Below are positions 1,140-12,177 of a DNA stretch of 32,000 nt, piece by piece. Made by a program: the position numbers and the translations under genes. The notes under the pieces were generated by a model. That model was not told where the DNA came from. It was given only the letters and a program-made list of their open reading frames with translations, and searched no databases. The DNA comes from Nostoc punctiforme PCC 73102. GTDB lineage: Bacteria; Cyanobacteriota; Cyanobacteriia; Cyanobacteriales; Nostocaceae. The stretch covers positions 30,001 to 62,000 of the forward strand of contig NC_010633.1 in NCBI RefSeq assembly GCF_000020025.1, read 5' to 3'. Positions within the stretch are counted from its first letter, which is position 1, and each line of letters starts with the position of its first letter.

Positions 1140-1379
1140 GTGTCACAAAAAGAACTATCTCATACCTCAGCTACGAACAAGCTGCTATTCGCAACTAAAG
1201 CTAATCCCTGTCCTCACTGCGGTAAACCAGACTGGTGCTACTCAATAGGAGAATTTACAGTTTGTGATCGCGATCGCTTTTATCAGCCTAACTATGCACT
1301 GGCTCAACCGGAACAATCGCCAACTTATGTATTAAGCAATAGTCAAAAATTAAATAATGTTCAAGGAGGTATCGCGTAA
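1140..1379 (+). CDS. Small zinc-ribbon protein coupled to the primase gene
   Basis: A GTG start lies 10 nt downstream of GGAGG (1126-1130). A Cys cluster CPHCGKPDWC...C is present. The TAA stop overlaps the ATG of the next gene (TAATG at 1377-1381). Confidence 0.6.
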   Translation: MSQKELSHTSATNKLLFATKANPCPHCGKPDWCYSIGEFTVCDRDRFYQPNYALAQPEQSPTYVLSNSQKLNNVQGGIA

Positions 1380-4300
1380 TGGTTGCACAATTCTCCAATC
1401 AGCAAGCACTCGCCTCCTTTGATATTCGCAATTTTGTAGACCAGTTAGAACCAGCCAGAGAGAAAAATAAATACATCTGCCCAGTTTGCGGTGGGCATAA
1501 TTTATCCATTGTCCAAGAAACTGGGAAGTACAGCTGCTTTAACCAGTGTGAGTGCAAAGACATCCGGGAGGCGATTAAACCTTGGGCTGAAGTCTTAGCA
1601 GAAAGAGCAGGGGTTAATTATACAACTTCCCCAAAAGCGAAAATACCCAACCCCAAGAGAATCTTGCCCAAAAGTGCGCCAATTCCAGATGGTGAATTAG
1701 CACTGGTGATGTTGACCCAAGCGGCGACTGACATACCCCAAACTCAAAACATAACTTGCAAGCTACCAAAGGGAATACCAGGGAATGCAACACAAACAAT
1801 CTACCCTTACGGAAAAACCCAATGGGTAATTCGCTATGAATGGGCGGATTACATCAAAGAGAAGGGTTATGATAAGTCCTTCCGCCAATGGCACAGGCTT
1901 CCAGATGGCACTCCAGAGATGAGAAAAGGGGATGAACCCTGGAAAGCTTACCGCATTGATGAAGCAATTGCCTGTGCTAAATCAGTGAATGTCACCCCGG
2001 CGCTACTCCAGCATGAAGGTGAGGGATGCGTAGAAGTTGGTCGCGCACATGGTCTGGCTGGGATTACGTTTCAAGGCAGTGCATGGGATAAGAAAACAAT
2101 TACCTCGGAATATCAACGCGCAATTGAAGCAGGCATAGGATTAATCGTTTTTCTGCACGATGCTGACGACACTGGCTTAAAGAAACTCCAGACCTGCCAA
2201 GATTGTGCCGACGAGGTGGGGATTGCATTTATTGGAATTAACCCTCACGACATCTGCCCCGATTTACCATATAAATCAAGTGACATCAAAGAAATCTTGG
2301 GGCAGATGGAAACACCAGAATTTATCCGTCGGTTAGAGCAGGAGATTCACGCGGCTGTGGCAAAGCGTGAGCAACTGGCAGAGGTAAACGTCATTGATAG
2401 CGATGATGACCAAAATCCGGTTGTAGCCTTTACCCAGCAAGCTTTTCAAGCTCTCTACGGAGATAAGAACTGGATTTGTGCTGCTGATAAGCTTTACTAC
2501 CACACTGGCAATCATTATAAACACTCCCCAGATTCCACAGAACGCAAAAGAATCTACGACTTTTGCAATTCTTTTGTGGTCGAGAACGAGCAGGGTAAAA
2601 AAACTTGTCCTTATGCTTCGCCCAGTTCAGTCAAAAAGGTTTTGGAGTGGGCGAAAATGGGAACAGAAATTGACCCAGAACTAATTAATCCTCCTGGGGT
2701 AAATTGCACCAATGGGATAGTCAAGGTTGAGTGGGAAGGCAGAAACTTTACAGTAAGACTAGCCCCACATACACCGGAGGATTATTACATTTATGAACCA
2801 TTGATTGAATATAACCCTAATGCTGATGATACATATTGTGAGCAACTTTTAGCTTGTTTAGACAAGCCACAGCAAGAAATATTTCTTAGAAATATTGCTG
2901 CATCCCTTGACCTTCAAACTGTTAGAAAATTCAGAGGGAGAGAGGTAAAAGCAATGTTCGCAATTGGGCTTGGTTCTAATGGTAAAGATGCTCTCCGCGA
3001 GTGTGTATCAACTATTTACGGGAAGAATGGGTTAACTTCTGTCTCCTTGGGTGACTTTCAATCTTATGACGAAGGCAGAAAATTCGGACTAGCCCCACTT
3101 ATATATAGTCGAGTTAATTGGGCTTCTGAAAACCCACAAACATCTAGAATTGACAGACTTCAAAGTTTAAAATTATTTGTCACTGGAGATACATTACACT
3201 GCGAACATAAAGGGAAAGACCATATAGAATTCTCTTCTAACGCAATAGGTATTTTCAACTTAAACGAAACTCCCGCTTTTCAGGGTGTAATACAAGCAAT
3301 CAAAGATAGGATTGCAATTCTAGAATTCAAGAAAACCTTTGTAGATAATCCTTCGCCAAATAATCTAAATGAGATAAAAGGCGACCCCAGATTTCGCTAT
3401 GACCAAGATTTTATTAGAACAAAATTAGCTCCCGCATTCCTAAATAGAATCTTAAAAGCTCTTAATAACCTTATAGAGTCAGGTATCGATTATGAATGCA
3501 CAACCGACGCTTTCCGCAACCTTCAGAGAGAGAATAATCATCTTTTTGACTTCATTGAAGATGAAAAACTGGGTTACGTCGAAGGTGGGGAGATGTCGGC
3601 AAGTGCTTTGTGGATGTTGCTGGAGAATTGGTACATCCAAAATGGCACATTAACTATAGATGAAAACAACCGTAGAACATGGATTGACCAAGTACGCCCC
3701 AGCGACAAAAACGTGAAGGGCATCAACCAAATCATCGCTCGAATCGCTCAACTCTTCCCCAAGGCAGTCAGGGCAACTCGGTACTGTGACATTCGGAAAA
3801 AACAGATTCCAATTCTCAAAGGCATCGGAATTATTGAGAATACCCGCCCCATTATTGAGAATACCCGCCCCATACCCGCCCCACTACCCGCCCCAGAAAC
3901 CCAGTCACAGCAAGCAACCCGCCCCACCCGCCCCACTTTTTCTAATTTTGGAGAAAACATTGAAGAGTCAGATATGAAAATTGAATTGCTTTCTCCGACA
4001 ATGGAAAAAGAGGAATATGTAACCCAAACTGGGGCGGGTGAGGCGGAACCCTTACCAGATAAGGAAATCTGGGGCGGTAACTGGGGCGAAACTGGGGCGG
4101 TTAGCTCCCAAAGTGGGGCGGGTAGCTCCCCAAGTTGTGCGGAAAAGCTAGAAAGTGGTGCGGGTCAATCGGACTCTGTGCCATCTTCTTCTGATTCCAA
4201 GGTTTTAGCCTTTGAAGCGATCGCTTGTATCTTGGAATCCCCTAATCCAAGTTGGGAGGTAATCAAGGATATTTTGAGCGAAATGGAAATCTCTTCTTAT

Positions 4301-4387
4301 TTAGAACTGCACGGGTTTTTGACCTTGGGTGAATTCGCGCAACTTGAGATGCTAATACCAGCCGCCGAGAGGGAGGTTGATCTTTAG
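1379..4387 (+). CDS. Replicative primase-helicase (zinc ribbon + Toprim primase + P4/D5-type SF3 helicase); likely plasmid Rep
   Basis: 1002-aa ORF with a Shine-Dalgarno sequence (AAGGAGG) just upstream. It has an N-terminal CPVCGG...C..C.C zinc ribbon. Toprim-like acidic motifs are present (QHEGEGCVE, FLHDADDTG). A Walker A motif, GLGSNGKD, sits in a context typical of phage/plasmid P4-family primase C-terminal domains. The C-terminal linker is low-complexity (IIENTRP x2, TRPTRPT, GAG-rich). Confidence 0.85.
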   Translation: MVAQFSNQQALASFDIRNFVDQLEPAREKNKYICPVCGGHNLSIVQETGKYSCFNQCECKDIREAIKPWAEVLAERAGVNYTTSPKAKIPNPKRILPKSAPIPDGELALVMLTQAATDIPQTQNITCKLPKGIPGNATQTIYPYGKTQWVIRYEWADYIKEKGYDKSFRQWHRLPDGTPEMRKGDEPWKAYRIDEAIACAKSVNVTPALLQHEGEGCVEVGRAHGLAGITFQGSAWDKKTITSEYQRAIEAGIGLIVFLHDADDTGLKKLQTCQDCADEVGIAFIGINPHDICPDLPYKSSDIKEILGQMETPEFIRRLEQEIHAAVAKREQLAEVNVIDSDDDQNPVVAFTQQAFQALYGDKNWICAADKLYYHTGNHYKHSPDSTERKRIYDFCNSFVVENEQGKKTCPYASPSSVKKVLEWAKMGTEIDPELINPPGVNCTNGIVKVEWEGRNFTVRLAPHTPEDYYIYEPLIEYNPNADDTYCEQLLACLDKPQQEIFLRNIAASLDLQTVRKFRGREVKAMFAIGLGSNGKDALRECVSTIYGKNGLTSVSLGDFQSYDEGRKFGLAPLIYSRVNWASENPQTSRIDRLQSLKLFVTGDTLHCEHKGKDHIEFSSNAIGIFNLNETPAFQGVIQAIKDRIAILEFKKTFVDNPSPNNLNEIKGDPRFRYDQDFIRTKLAPAFLNRILKALNNLIESGIDYECTTDAFRNLQRENNHLFDFIEDEKLGYVEGGEMSASALWMLLENWYIQNGTLTIDENNRRTWIDQVRPSDKNVKGINQIIARIAQLFPKAVRATRYCDIRKKQIPILKGIGIIENTRPIIENTRPIPAPLPAPETQSQQATRPTRPTFSNFGENIEESDMKIELLSPTMEKEEYVTQTGAGEAEPLPDKEIWGGNWGETGAVSSQSGAGSSPSCAEKLESGAGQSDSVPSSSDSKVLAFEAIACILESPNPSWEVIKDILSEMEISSYLELHGFLTLGEFAQLEMLIPAAEREVDL
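3830..3934 (+). repeat. Array of six ACCCGCCCC 9-mers, including a 21-bp tandem duplication at 3830-3871
   Basis: Exact ACCCGCCCC copies occur at 3842-3850, 3863-3871, 3874-3882, 3886-3894, 3917-3925 and 3926-3934. ATTATTGAGAATACCCGCCCC is repeated in tandem. Confidence 0.9.
4031..4165 (-). repeat. Array of the reverse-complement motif GGGGCGG(GT), five to six copies
   Basis: GGGGCGGGT occurs at 4031-4039 and 4115-4123. GGGGCGGT is at 4071-4078, GGGGCG at 4083-4088 and GGGGCGG at 4094-4100. A degenerate GGTGCGGGT lies at 4157-4165. One further GGGGCGGT copy sits at 4467-4474, downstream of the stop codon. Confidence 0.85.
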
Positions 4388-4637
4388 TACTACAAGAGGG
4401 ACTGTCACGGTGATGCCCAATACGAGAGTCAGCCCTGACTGGCGCTCACGTCAAATTAAGGTTTTGGGGCGGTTAGGCGAACTTCTTGACAAAATATCAC
4501 CCCAGATATACATTGCTGAAACTATTACTATAAAAGGATTACAGCCTTAACGAACAATTTCCCCGTTTCGGTGATCGCTTCAATAGGCGATCATACAAAT
4601 TATCCGAAAGTACTAAACTTCAACCATCAATACTACC

Positions 4638-5329: not shown

Positions 5330-6355
5330 TCAACCGAGTAAAATTTTACTTTTTTGCTTACGGCTCAGTAGCTTGCTTGCTCCTAGCGTAGCCCCAAATG
5401 CCAACACAGCTAGCGTCATTCTAGGTTCAGGAATAATAGTGTTGTCTTCAGTGAAAGCTAAAAAGCCAGCCCCATTTAATCCACCTCGACCGGCAGGGAT
5501 AAAGGTGTCAATAAATGCTCCTGTCTTGCCGTCGTAACGCAACACGTTGTTACTATTTAAGCCACTAACATAGAGGTTTCCATCAGGGCCGAAGACTGGC
5601 TTGAGAGGATCGTTAAGTCCTCCACTGCCAGCAGGAATAAAGGTGTCAATAAAAGCTCCTGTTTTTCCATTAAAGCGCGAAATATTGTTACTCACAAAGT
5701 TAGCAACATATAGATTGCCATCTGCTCCAAAGGTCAAACCACCAGGTTCTGAACCTTTTGCCTCTGTAGCAAAAGTGTCAATAAAAGCTCCTGTTTGTCC
5801 GTTGTAGCGAAGAATATTATCCGTTAGAACACTACTGACGTAGAGGTTATTGTCTGAACCAAAGCTCAAACCAAAAGGTGCAGTGAGTCCGCCGCTACTT
5901 GAAGGAACAAAAGTATCAATAAAAGCTCCTGTTTGTCCGTTGTAGCGGAGAACACTATTACTAGTGCGGCTGTTAATACTGGTAACGTAGAGGTTGCCAT
6001 CAGGCCCAAAAACTAAGTCTTCAGGTGCATCTAGTCCACCACTACCAGAAGGAACAAAGGTACTAATGAAATTCCCTGTTTTTCCGTCGTAACGTTGGAT
6101 ACTACCGTTCAAAATACTGCTTACATAAAGATTATTATCCGGCCCAATAGTTAAACCAGTTGTTCCCTGTAGTCCTCCACTACCATTCGGAACGAATTCA
6201 TCAATGAATTCTCCCGTTTTTTCTTCGTAGCGTAGGACGGAGTTATTGTTATAACTCCCTACTAAAAGTGCTGCGTTAGCTCTTGGGGCTATCCACCCTA
6301 GCAATGCGAAGCTTATCAGTGGGACACCGATCTGACAAAAATTGAAAAACTTCAT
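5330..6355 (-). CDS. Six-repeat NHL-like beta-propeller protein with signal peptide and PEP-CTERM sorting tail
   Basis: There are six ~47-aa repeats (N.vLRY.G.TGaFIDtF.P.GSGGL...FGPDGNLYVs). An N-terminal signal peptide is present. The C-terminus reads IPEP, then a hydrophobic helix, then basic SRKQKSK, which matches the PEP-CTERM pattern. Confidence 0.85.
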   Translation of the reverse strand: MKFFNFCQIGVPLISFALLGWIAPRANAALLVGSYNNNSVLRYEEKTGEFIDEFVPNGSGGLQGTTGLTIGPDNNLYVSSILNGSIQRYDGKTGNFISTFVPSGSGGLDAPEDLVFGPDGNLYVTSINSRTSNSVLRYNGQTGAFIDTFVPSSSGGLTAPFGLSFGSDNNLYVSSVLTDNILRYNGQTGAFIDTFATEAKGSEPGGLTFGADGNLYVANFVSNNISRFNGKTGAFIDTFIPAGSGGLNDPLKPVFGPDGNLYVSGLNSNNVLRYDGKTGAFIDTFIPAGRGGLNGAGFLAFTEDNTIIPEPRMTLAVLAFGATLGASKLLSRKQKSKILLG

Positions 6356-8856: not shown

Positions 8857-9906
8857 ATGCAAACCTTTCAACTAATTGAAGATTTTGAGTTTTTACAAAA
8901 ATTGCTAGAAAAAGACGAGAATAAATTAGTATTTGAATGGCTGTTTTTTTTGGCAGATTCAGAAATAAATGAAATTTTGAAATCAATTGGAGATTCTATT
9001 GACGAAGGAAATAAGGGATCTGTCGGCAGCGCTCAACTCTATACAAGAAGTTTGATCAACCAAATAAAATTACGTATAAAACCTAAAGTTTTTTTTAGCT
9101 CATTTGAAATACTACAAAAAGATTACATTTCATTTCTAAAAACAATAAACCCAAATAGTGAAATAGAAAGTTATATTCGTTCTCAGTTTTCCCTATTAGA
9201 AGAGGCATACGAAAGATTTATTGATAATTATGATTATAATTCAACTGTCAATTTAATTACTTGTGCAAAAGTTCTTGTAAATATCCTATCTACTTTTAAC
9301 GAAGTTAATAGTTTTCTCATTAAAAATCTTCAACAAACTTATGATTTTGAACTTGATGAAACTTTAAATTCTTTTTCTCTTTTTATAGATTCTGATTATA
9401 CATTTAAAGAATTTATACAAAAACTAGAAGCTATTCAAGCACTGTATTCAGAATTATGCTTTCTTTATGATATTTCTGAGGTTGATTTTCCTCTAAGAAT
9501 AATTAAGATAGAATCTGGGAGTTTATGGGTTAAAATCTTTGGAGAATCTCGAGTTATAGAGACAATTGTATCTTTAATAAAAGACGCTAAGGAATATGGC
9601 TATAGAAACTTAACTAAAGAGGGAAAGATTGAAGCAGAGCAGCAAAATTTTAAAGCTATAGAATCAGCTTTAGAACTTAGAAAAAAGTTACAGGAAGCTA
9701 ACATTGATGTTGAAGAATTTGATGAAAAAATAAAAAAAAGTTCTATTGTAATCATAAACAATCTTAATACTCTTTTGTCTGGTGAAAAGAAAATAAAACT
9801 AAATGGTGAATTAATAGAATCAGATGACACAACTCAAAAACTTTTAAAAGGCAGTAACAGATATTTACTTGAAGGTTCCAAAGATGCTACAGAGGACAAT
9901 GAGTAG
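8857..9906 (+). CDS. AT-rich orphan protein (349 aa), no recognisable domain
   Basis: The ATG is preceded by GAGG (8846-8849). It is a long uninterrupted ORF in a region much more AT-rich than its surroundings. It appears helical/coiled-coil rich, with no P-loop and no catalytic motif I can name. Confidence 0.7.
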   Translation: MQTFQLIEDFEFLQKLLEKDENKLVFEWLFFLADSEINEILKSIGDSIDEGNKGSVGSAQLYTRSLINQIKLRIKPKVFFSSFEILQKDYISFLKTINPNSEIESYIRSQFSLLEEAYERFIDNYDYNSTVNLITCAKVLVNILSTFNEVNSFLIKNLQQTYDFELDETLNSFSLFIDSDYTFKEFIQKLEAIQALYSELCFLYDISEVDFPLRIIKIESGSLWVKIFGESRVIETIVSLIKDAKEYGYRNLTKEGKIEAEQQNFKAIESALELRKKLQEANIDVEEFDEKIKKSSIVIINNLNTLLSGEKKIKLNGELIESDDTTQKLLKGSNRYLLEGSKDATEDNE

Positions 9907-9971
9907 CTTAACTAGAAATAATCAGGTGTCCAAACGTCGTAGGCTATGGATCACAGGGTCTACAGTCAACG

Positions 9972-10085
9972 ATGAAAATTAATCGGCATGGTCGCGCCAA
10001 GGTTCTTACACAATCAGAGATACAGCTAATTTTCAGTCACGGCTTGGACAATGACCGTGATCGCGGTTTATGTCGGGATTTGATA
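9972..10085 (+). pseudogene. Possible N-terminal remnant of a different tyrosine recombinase (37 codons)
   Basis: It translates to MKINRHGRAKVLTQSEIQLIFSHGLDNDRDRGLCRDLIV*. The start resembles the N-termini I recall for cyanobacterial site-specific integrases (MKINRHG.A..L...E...L). It stops prematurely. Confidence 0.35.
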
Positions 10086-10891: not shown

Positions 10892-11002
10892 GTATTAATT
10901 GTGGTCGTTAAACAAATTACTCGTGCTTATAAAAAAAACTGTAAGCAGATTTCGAGTACTTTGTTCATCCTCCACTAAAAGCACTGTGCTGATTTATCTT
11001 AA

Positions 11003-11119
11003 TTAGTCAACGTCAGAGAAATCCAGGACTTTCTGGGACACCGTGATATAAAAGACGCTGAAAAATACACCAAGCTAAATGCTCGACGCTTCCTGAATTT
11101 TGATTGGGGTAATTTATAG
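11003..11119 (+). pseudogene. Orphan 3' fragment of a second FimB/E-like recombinase gene (copy B of the direct repeat)
   Basis: It encodes LVNVREIQDFLGHRDIKDAEKYTKLNARRFLNFDWGNL*. The intact gene reads LVNQGYNTREIQDFLGHRDIKHTEKYTKLNARRFLNFDWGDL*. A stop codon lies immediately upstream at 11000-11002. Confidence 0.85.
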
Positions 11120-11190
11120 TATTCCATTTTTTATAATATAGTTAGCTATAATTAATATTAAAATTATCAATTTAAAATTGTAGATTTTTT

Positions 11191-12177
11191 ATGAAGTGCA
11201 TTATATGTAAACAAGATAAGCCTAATGAAAATTTTAGTGAAGAGCATATATTTCCTGATAGTATTGGTGGAAATATTAAACTAAATTGTGTTTGCAAACT
11301 ATGTAATGATTTTCTTGGACATTCAGTAGATTCATTTCTTGTTAATCATGATTTTGTTAAATTGTACCGTCTTATTTTAAAGATACCTGGAAAATCAGGA
11401 GAAATTCCAAATCCGTGGAAGGAAGTGTATCTTACTGAGACTAACGAAAAAATTCAATTTATATTCGATAGGGATGGTAATCCTCAAGGACTAAAAACAT
11501 TTACCAAAATTCAGAAAAATTATATAGATAATAAATTAGAATTAAAAATCCAAGCTGACGCAAAAGATAAAGATATACTACCAGGAATTATTAATAAAAA
11601 ATTAAGAAGAGATGGGTTAAATCAATTAACCGAAAAAGAAATAGAAAAAATTATAAATCCTCAATCAATCATTAGATATCGACCACAGATTTATAAAAAA
11701 TTTTCGATTGATTTATTTCTTTATAAACGTGCAATTATAAAAATTGCATATGAATTAGCTTATTATTATCTTGGTTCTACTTACCTAAATGATGAAATGG
11801 GGGAATTGTTGCGGTTGACTATTAAGGATAAATCTCCAGAAGGAAAGCAATTAACTAAATATCCAATTGATGCTTTTATTGAAATTTCAGGAACAATGTT
11901 ATTTCCTTATTTTAAGAATGAACATGAGCATCATATTGCTATAATAAAACGACATAAAGATTGTCTAAAGTGTTACATTAGTATTTTTGATGTTTTTCAA
12001 AGTATAATTACTGTTAGTAATGATGCAAATCTATATCAAAATTTTAAAGATAAATTTATAGCAATTAATGCTAAAACAAGAAAATCACGACAATTAGAAC
12101 TTGAAGAAGAACTTTTAAGGATAGCAAACGAAATATGTGGCACTACTTCTAGTTTTGAATTATCTGCTGATTTTTAA
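11191..12177 (+). CDS. HNH (His-Me finger) endonuclease-domain protein with a ~250-aa uncharacterised C-terminal region
   Basis: The N-terminus reads CIICKQ...EEHIFPDSIGGN...CKLCNDFLG (CxxC...H...N...CxxC). The gene is very AT-rich. The remaining ~250 aa match nothing I recognise. Confidence 0.75.
   Translation: MKCIICKQDKPNENFSEEHIFPDSIGGNIKLNCVCKLCNDFLGHSVDSFLVNHDFVKLYRLILKIPGKSGEIPNPWKEVYLTETNEKIQFIFDRDGNPQGLKTFTKIQKNYIDNKLELKIQADAKDKDILPGIINKKLRRDGLNQLTEKEIEKIINPQSIIRYRPQIYKKFSIDLFLYKRAIIKIAYELAYYYLGSTYLNDEMGELLRLTIKDKSPEGKQLTKYPIDAFIEISGTMLFPYFKNEHEHHIAIIKRHKDCLKCYISIFDVFQSIITVSNDANLYQNFKDKFIAINAKTRKSRQLELEEELLRIANEICGTTSSFELSADF

Follow-up and report, generated by a model that had tools for sequence, protein, structure and literature searches.

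Why should one short word of DNA be repeated, first in one orientation and then in the other, inside the coding sequence of a primase-helicase gene? The question is raised by rep, a gene in the stretch of Nostoc punctiforme PCC 73102 analysed here (contig NC_010633.1, positions 30,001 to 62,000; 32,000 nucleotides, hereafter the window), in which two opposed arrays of such a word face each other across an AT-rich spacer. Judged by sequence comparison, the 284-bp element formed by these arrays (3841-4124) probably serves the plasmid as its vegetative replication origin, and lies inside the gene for its own initiator. The parts of the locus on which this reading depends are as follows.

1379-4387, plus strand: rep, an open reading frame (ORF) for a 1002-residue primase / superfamily 3 (SF3) helicase, with the whole element inside it (from the ORF list and Pfam).
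3842-3935, plus strand: left arm, six CCGCCCCA sites at 3844, 3865, 3876, 3888, 3919 and 3928, with gaps of 21, 11, 12, 31 and 9.
3936-4029, no strand: central AT-rich spacer, the proposed unwinding region, 94-96 bp with 31% G+C against about 42% for the window.
4030-4121, minus strand: right arm, six mirror-image TGGGGCGG-type sites at 4030, 4039, 4070, 4082, 4093 and 4114, with gaps of 9, 31, 12, 11 and 21.

An earlier interpretation of the window made from its letters alone – the sequence-only reading – had reported six exact 9-mers at 3842-3934, and all six copies of ACCCGCCCC are indeed found on the plus strand, at 3842, 3863, 3874, 3886, 3917 and 3926. It had also counted five to six copies of GGGGCGG(GT) at 4031-4165. 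The opposed array stands and the count does not: GGGGCGG is exact at 4031, 4071, 4094 and 4115, two sites carry one mismatch (TGAGGCGG at 4039 and TGGGGCGA at 4082), and two more are distal variants; the six sites of the right arm are thus those recognized with one mismatch allowed. The heptamer GGGGCGG occurs 11 times in the window and all 11 copies are at this locus, as against 1.29 +/- 1.14 (maximum 4) in shuffled sequences. The gaps of the right arm are the exact mirror of those of the left, such that for every pair the right start equals 7958 minus the left start, and two inverted repeats (3841-3897/4068-4124 and 3919-3939/4026-4046) share an axis at 3982.5, between 3982 and 3983. Mirrored gaps and common axis together define the element as an imperfect palindrome of twelve sites. 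The gaps are approximately multiples of one helical turn, and mirror complementarity falls from 89% within words to 40% between sites and, in the spacer, to the random level of 23%. The spacer, put earlier at 96 bp (3935-4030) and about one-third G+C, measures 31%; its duplex stability (z = +0.6 to +1.5) compares with about -2 in the arms. At the element Rfam returned only a spurious microRNA match, caused by the inverted repeat, and a terminator scan found no terminator.

A central issue is whether the words are preserved for their own sake or for the peptide that they encode, which, as the sequence-only reading had it, is TRP-rich in the first array and GAG-rich in the second. Evidence came from 35 close homologues on Nostoc plasmids and contigs, which together with the window make 36 family members. 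That both arrays should be kept in both orientations had been set beforehand as a test, and the opposed two-arm layout is present in all 35 homologues, with 6-7 plus-strand copies followed by 3-8 minus-strand copies. Left-arm gaps of 21, 11, 12, 31 and 9 are identical in 36/36 members, the spacer varies between 94 and 106 bp (G+C 0.29-0.41), and throughout the family the arrays lie within the ORF, 250-540 bp ahead of the stop codon. The ORF runs unbroken through the arrays in 34/35 homologues; the exception (L016) is a metagenome-assembled contig whose frame is broken upstream. On complete plasmids the word is confined to the array cluster, save for 1-4 scattered single copies elsewhere.

Within the word the frame CCG-NN-CCA is invariant and variation is restricted to the two central bases, which read CC in the window and 10 others, CA in 18 and AC in 7. 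The change is concerted: in any one plasmid a single variant is found at the core sites of left and right arms alike. Its coding effects are uneven. In the CA type the left arm goes from Thr-Arg-Pro to Thr-Arg-Thr and the right arm, with GGG replaced by GGT, keeps its peptide; in the AC type it is the left arm that is silent (CGC to CGA) and the right arm in which Ala becomes Ser. Entropy at codon positions 1/2/3 across the 36 members is 0.00/0.06/0.00 in the word frame, with third positions invariant at 12/12, compared with 0.74/0.66/0.77 at inter-site bases and 0.37/0.22/0.91 in the upstream coding flank. These entropies, along with the uneven effects of the concerted changes, indicate that it is the DNA word, and not the peptide, that is under selection. 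The expectation that the words would be conserved as DNA while the peptide drifts is thus borne out: from the alignment, the constraint is on DNA and not on its translation.

The same conclusion emerges from a more distant relative. In Rhizonema (locus L042, 44% identity) seven CGTAACCC sites are followed by six opposed copies across an AT-rich 115 bp, with gaps of 10, 11, 11, 12, 33 and 9 on one side and 9, 33, 13, 11 and 21 on the other, nearly as in Nostoc. The rep stop codon, TAA, falls inside the first CGTAACCC site, and the arrays lie just downstream of rep and are non-coding; the layout therefore needs no coding role. Anabaena-type relatives carry TCCACACCA with left gaps of 12, 11, 32 and 9 and a longer spacer, and oscillatorialean relatives have compact in-ORF dyad arrays of GCCAACGCA or CTCCAGCA. 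By megablast against plasmids the rep gene occurs on Nostoc plasmids only, and the homologues sit on circular plasmids of 35-69 kb. Relatives number 79 loci in one scan of representative genomes and at least 267 in a protein search, the named ones all cyanobacterial.

Other arrangements were seen among these relatives. One oscillatorialean locus (L055, 5545-5838) has the palindrome TGTATACA six times just downstream of rep, besides its in-ORF GCCAACGCA arrays. In Nodularia (L037, 5079-5303; L038, 5080-5195; 49% identical) the opposed arrays are replaced at the equivalent position by 7-12 direct tandem units of 18 bp that include ATCAACCAG. A second Nostoc Rep family (L044-L066, L075) has only the first ~340 residues, the primase part, in common with the present one; the 3' part of its ORF holds arrays of CTGTCCA that surround an A-rich centre in both orientations, the copies often being paired at a distance of 9 bp (for example L047, 5112-5392). 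From the pattern of its repeats this looks like an analogous origin within an ORF.

The nature of the protein is consistent with an initiator. Rep is the sole annotated initiator candidate on three complete homologous plasmids. It comprises an N-terminal Cys-rich region and primase part, followed by D5_N (residues 354-492) and DUF5906 (529-632); these are its only matches in a Pfam scan at E<=0.01, and both are above the cut-offs. The NCBIfam model for the C-terminal region of P4-family primases, TIGR01613, matches at E=6.6e-23 and 81 bits, below its curated cut-off of 108.7. A search of the PDB with the Rep sequence returned a single match, the primase-helicase C962R of African swine fever virus (ASFV; E=2e-4), and no SaPI (Staphylococcus aureus pathogenicity island) or P4 chain; the SaPI match came from comparison of folds alone. 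Using an AlphaFold (AF2) model with a mean predicted local distance difference test (pLDDT) score of 76, Foldseek recovered the ASFV PrimPol (E=2e-17) and the SaPI5 protein PriRep5 (7ola; E=2.3e-14, template-modelling score on the target 0.58-0.64, 414-487 aligned columns). As modelled, Rep is related to PriRep5, a self-loading iteron-binding Rep, at the level of fold only. Three segments of the protein bear upon the element.

3476-3841, plus strand: winged-helix-like domain (residues 700-821), directly before the arrays and proposed to bind the iterons (AF2 model and fold matches).
3839-4198, plus strand: stretch encoded by the element (residues 821-940), a predicted disordered linker (AF2 model).
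4190-4384, plus strand: C-terminal tail domain (residues 938-1002), modelled by AF2 as four short helices (helical over 938-997).

The pre-array domain, which reaches a pLDDT of 87 when modelled alone, is predicted to contain helices at 741-755 and 782-792 and a hairpin of strands 797-803 and 808-818. Its best fold matches are winged-helix DNA-binding domains – RFX1 bound to DNA (1dp7; probability 0.93, E=0.2), RFX5, PadR and TFE – and all are weak (E>=0.2). On the strength of the model we propose residues ~740-820, winged-helix-like in form, as the part of Rep that binds the 8-bp word. In the model pLDDT falls to about 28 over residues 821-940, against 80-95 on both flanks, and the low stretch is exactly the part that the element encodes. 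The tail beyond it comes in two unrelated versions among the homologues; these combine freely with word types, which marks the tail as an exchangeable module.

Comparison with known systems helps to place the locus. Classical iteron plasmids (Rep_3, RepA, pi, TrfA) carry direct repeats of 17-22 bp in one orientation, and their winged-helix Rep, passing from dimer to monomer, recruits a host helicase; the Nostoc words, in contrast, are 8 bp long and form two opposed arms, and the initiator carries its own helicase. The alpha protein of phage P4 is a primase-helicase whose C-terminal origin-binding domain reads 8-bp repeats and which needs both ori and crr, each outside the alpha gene. Nostoc Rep is probably of the same broad primase-helicase family (D5_N above its cut-off, TIGR01613 below), but its element is a single cluster within the gene and has no crr-like second site. 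The P4 ori/crr pair offered as a model by the sequence-only reading therefore gives way to a closer precedent, the Rep-ori units of SaPIs and other phage-inducible chromosomal islands (PICIs).

In SaPIs and PICIs the origin is built of 6-12 short iterons, divided equally between two oppositely oriented flanks of an AT-rich centre, and is placed just downstream of rep; Rep itself is an SF3 helicase that loads without a partner, may be fused to a primase and reads the iterons through its winged helix (PMC9371898, PMC6092414). In replicons of this type the winged helix binds the iterons specifically and needs no ATP to do so. Known from S. aureus and also from E. coli PICIs, these units share with the Nostoc element opposed iterons around an AT-rich centre, attachment to rep and an SF3 initiator, and are its closest match in both architecture and fold. 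Differences are nonetheless evident. The SaPI origin lies just past the rep stop codon, a position shared by Rhizonema L042 alone, whereas the Nostoc ORF reads through into an extra tail; the Nostoc word has 8 bp against the 5-6 nucleotides of SaPI iterons, and its six-plus-six mirror is exact; and the context is a plasmid and not a phage-inducible chromosomal island, with no sequence similarity to SaPI Reps detectable. For an origin within the coding sequence of its initiator the parallel is lambda: lambdoid phages have an origin, composed of iterons and an AT-rich tract, midway along gene O, where it is translated, such that extra iterons lengthen the protein (PMC7466680). O, however, is an unrelated protein that is no helicase and recruits DnaB via P, unlike Nostoc Rep with its own SF3 helicase, and the lambda iterons lie on one side of the AT-rich tract where Nostoc has two opposed arms. 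Large primase/helicase-like Reps are also found on other cyanobacterial plasmids, for which the characterised initiators are CyRepA1 and CyRepA2 (Synechocystis pSYSA and pCC5.2). Their rep loci alone support autonomous replication, pSYSA is controlled by an antisense RNA with priming thought to occur in an intergenic spacer, and iterons are mentioned in neither paper (PMC10079941, PMC9978351); the CyRepA proteins are of the DUF3854 type, with a Toprim-related N-terminal domain, whereas Nostoc Rep has no DUF3854 match in Pfam at E<=0.01. Finally, the archaeal plasmid pRN1 has in ORF904 an initiator that likewise couples a primase to an SF3 helicase; an essential cis region adjoins the 3' end of its rep, with 166 bp past the gene reported as necessary (PMC4234260). 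The ORF904 primase is of a different type (prim-pol), and the origin there lies outside the ORF and is described as a downstream cis region and not as opposed iteron arrays.

If Rep binds the words, which of its residues tells one word type from another? Proteins other than Rep were considered as binders. The 79-residue product of the ORF immediately upstream is ruled out, being nearly identical in CC, CA and AC plasmids, as are the product of a 240-residue upstream ORF and the ParM neighbours, which are absent from several array-bearing homologues; the remaining neighbouring genes are not conserved across homologues. Within Rep, the C-terminal tail is excluded as the specificity determinant, since both tails occur with both CC and CA words, and the recognition helix (782-792) finds no support, for its variants do not track word type. 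In three CA plasmids the helicase domain, as far as about residue 701, is CC-like. These mosaics, along with the freely assorting tails, place the determinant between residues ~701 and 930. In that interval, outside the array-coded peptide, a single column, residue 809, sorts perfectly by word type, being Q in CC, N in CA and D in AC plasmids. Residue 740 follows word type with one exception. Codon 809 (CAG, 3803-3805) falls, in the model, where the second strand of the beta-hairpin wing begins, and the association is suggestive of residue 809 as the reader of word type. Equation of word type with incompatibility group was considered and is not established, given that some strains hold two plasmids of the same type; other strains (C057, UHCC 0252, NMS7) hold different types.

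By likeness to the SaPI Reps we infer an iteron origin of the SaPI/PICI type, embedded as in lambda O, that would operate as follows. The initiator, a P4/D5-type primase fused to an SF3 helicase, would bind the word CCG-NN-CCA through its winged-helix-like domain (~residues 740-820), the two central bases of the word setting plasmid-specific recognition. Six helically phased sites per side, in opposed orientation, would place two facing Rep assemblies across the AT-rich centre; the centre would melt, each helicase would load itself – giving a double hexamer – and the primase domain would prime, the outcome being bidirectional theta replication. The ORF would read through the origin, with the words translated into a disordered linker that joins the helicase/winged-helix body to the exchangeable tail.

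Several observations weigh against this account or parts of it. The winged-helix assignment stands on weak fold matches, the best at E=0.2. The association of residue 809 with word type may be mere linkage, given that the codon lies 39 bp from the first site and that there are only three word types, and two family members of the same word type occur in one strain in FACHB-838, UCD121 and FACHB-393. The spacer is moderately unstable at most and is not the least stable stretch of rep. In CA-type plasmids two right-arm sites are lost or degraded, from which it follows that strict six-plus-six symmetry is not required. Cumulative GC skew, calculated for the window and three complete plasmids, shows no switch at the element and no clear V-shape anywhere, a result that is uninformative rather than contradictory because the plasmids are mosaic.

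Other explanations of the arrays must be set against an origin within rep. Control sites bound by an initiator are familiar from P4 crr and from P1 incA relative to ori, and the Nostoc words could likewise be bound by Rep for copy-number handcuffing, for incompatibility or as a transcriptional roadblock in rep, with the start site elsewhere. All of the evidence for a plasmid-specific protein-binding element fits such sites equally well; binding within the ORF could block rep transcription, and a spacer that is moderately AT-rich at most is in keeping with them. We nonetheless regard this explanation as unlikely. There is one word cluster per plasmid, which means that Rep could bind an origin elsewhere only through some other sequence; opposed arrays with an AT-rich centre beside rep are the layout of functionally proven SaPI/PICI origins (PMC9371898, PMC6092414); and in Rhizonema L042 the layout stands outside the ORF, where blocking of rep transcription is impossible. 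It is appreciably less probable that the arms are selected to pair with one another, as a long hairpin in mRNA or single-stranded DNA or as a cruciform, serving as a primase entry signal or in control of tail translation, with compensatory base changes. The strand does fold into a long hairpin (dG -73.7 kcal/mol, z = -9.4), and changes in the left and right arms are complementary, but pairing leaves unexplained both the recurrence of one word at six sites per arm and the invariance of the CCG..CCA frame. Moreover, complementarity is concentrated in the words (89%, against 40% between sites and 23% in the spacer), right-arm sites have been lost in CA types without matching loss from the left arm, and there is no genuine Rfam match.

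That the arrays are a partition centromere, with a neighbouring ParM/ParA system supplying the adaptor that binds it, has a little less again to recommend it. Centromere repeats are normally direct and upstream of the par operon, and the arrays are fixed in rep whatever its neighbours: loci L002, L003 and L005 have no adjacent ParM. Word type, furthermore, tracks a residue of Rep, while the 79-residue upstream protein is nearly identical across the three word types. These points outweigh the resemblance to R1 parC, which also has two blocks of short repeats, and the presence of ParM/StbA genes upstream of rep in several homologues. There remains the plainest reading, that the TRP/GAG-rich stretch is an ordinary low-complexity linker with no function at the level of DNA. 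It is in frame in a real gene and is predicted to be disordered, yet the third positions of the word do not vary, in contrast to the codons between sites, which drift at every position; the two arms, though they encode unrelated peptides, change in step through synonymous as well as non-synonymous substitutions; and the same layout is non-coding in L042. We give this reading almost no credence.

Two further sets of copies lie beyond the right arm.

4135-4163, minus strand: distal extra copies, TTGTGCGG at 4135 and TGGTGCGG at 4156, in 21-bp steps, with a variant word (GTGCGG) of the CA type.
4466-4473 and 4486-4514, plus strand: an isolated GGGGCGGT and a promoter-like TTGACA-17-TACATT (from a promoter scan), judged to lie outside the element.

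The distal copies are of the CA type although the plasmid is of the CC type: the twelve core sites have been homogenised and the distal two have not. Every CC-type plasmid with tail 1 has them, whereas locus L022, which combines the CC type with tail 2, does not; they are probably vestigial or accessory. CC-type plasmids with tail 1 carry 1-3 CA-type words past the right arm, and CA-type plasmids with tail 1, such as L003, have 63-bp repeat units there; the pattern suggests right-arm recombination between plasmids of different word type. On the other side of the element, 150 bp upstream of the left arm, the near-copy ACGCCCCA lies at 3694-3701 of the window in a conserved Arg-Pro-Ser-Asp coding segment. 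All seven AC-type plasmids have at this position a full AC word, CCGACCCA (L004, 4819-4826), with CGA and not CGC as the Arg codon. The upstream near-copy may represent a seventh site, or gene conversion may have produced it.

The isolated copy at 4466 is a different matter. The sequence-only reading had placed an extra copy at 4467-4474, upstream of a TTGACA box at 4486-4491; the box is present and the copy exists, one base to the left, but it is no part of the element. It sits in an intergenic module of ~100 bp (~4415-4495) that ends in the promoter-like site. The module is matched, at 93% identity or more, by intergenic pieces of unrelated plasmids of Nostoc (p057_I, N. commune HK-02 plasmid4 and others), and one of these pieces reads GGGGTGG. 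The unrelated plasmids that bear the module lack this rep and have no arrays nearby, and the module is missing downstream of rep in the nearest homologues (L001-L003); the copy is on these grounds ruled out as a seventh right-hand iteron. The module may be a shared promoter or a small mobile module.

As to the surroundings, the 79-residue ORF (1140-1379, plus strand) ends exactly at the rep start, encodes a CPHCGKPDWC motif that is zinc-ribbon-like, and is kept upstream of rep in about one third of homologues. The PLSDB resistance predictor tags it 'chrB 23S rRNA methyltransferase', which looks like a mis-call given its 79 residues. A 341-residue ORF (5330-6355, minus strand) weakly resembles the ScyF/ScyE-type NHL beta-propeller proteins that take part in scytonemin biosynthesis; at E=1.6e-17 the match falls far short of the curated cut-off. 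Two kilobases of the window are low in G+C, 9001-10000 (0.295) and 11001-12000 (0.272), against ~0.42 elsewhere.

If the element is indeed an origin within the ORF of its initiator, then it may also serve as a compact, evolvable cassette of specificity. The pairing of Rep with its origin would be set by the middle two bases of the word, as read by one or a few residues on the wing (809: Q, N or D), and several sister plasmids could thereby share a Nostoc cell. As the cassette lies between exchangeable protein modules, helicase bodies and tails would be reassorted by recombination at the origin; and Rep bound within its own gene would act as a transcriptional roadblock feeding back on full-length Rep. 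We put this forward tentatively, as a speculation that is considerably more likely to prove wrong than right in this form.

The replication of many Nostoc-group plasmids is uncharacterised, and in the literature searched neither this Rep family nor its origin is described. The present analysis predicts, to the base, the origin of a family whose database relatives number at least 267 across filamentous cyanobacteria. A probable origin that stands outside the gene in Rhizonema and inside it in Nostoc offers a natural case of a cis element absorbed into a reading frame, its DNA kept while its translation drifts. It also offers a candidate recognition code, in which three word types that are two bases apart are tracked by one residue of Rep, and a minimal rep-ori cassette of ~3 kb that could give mutually compatible vectors for Nostoc and Anabaena.

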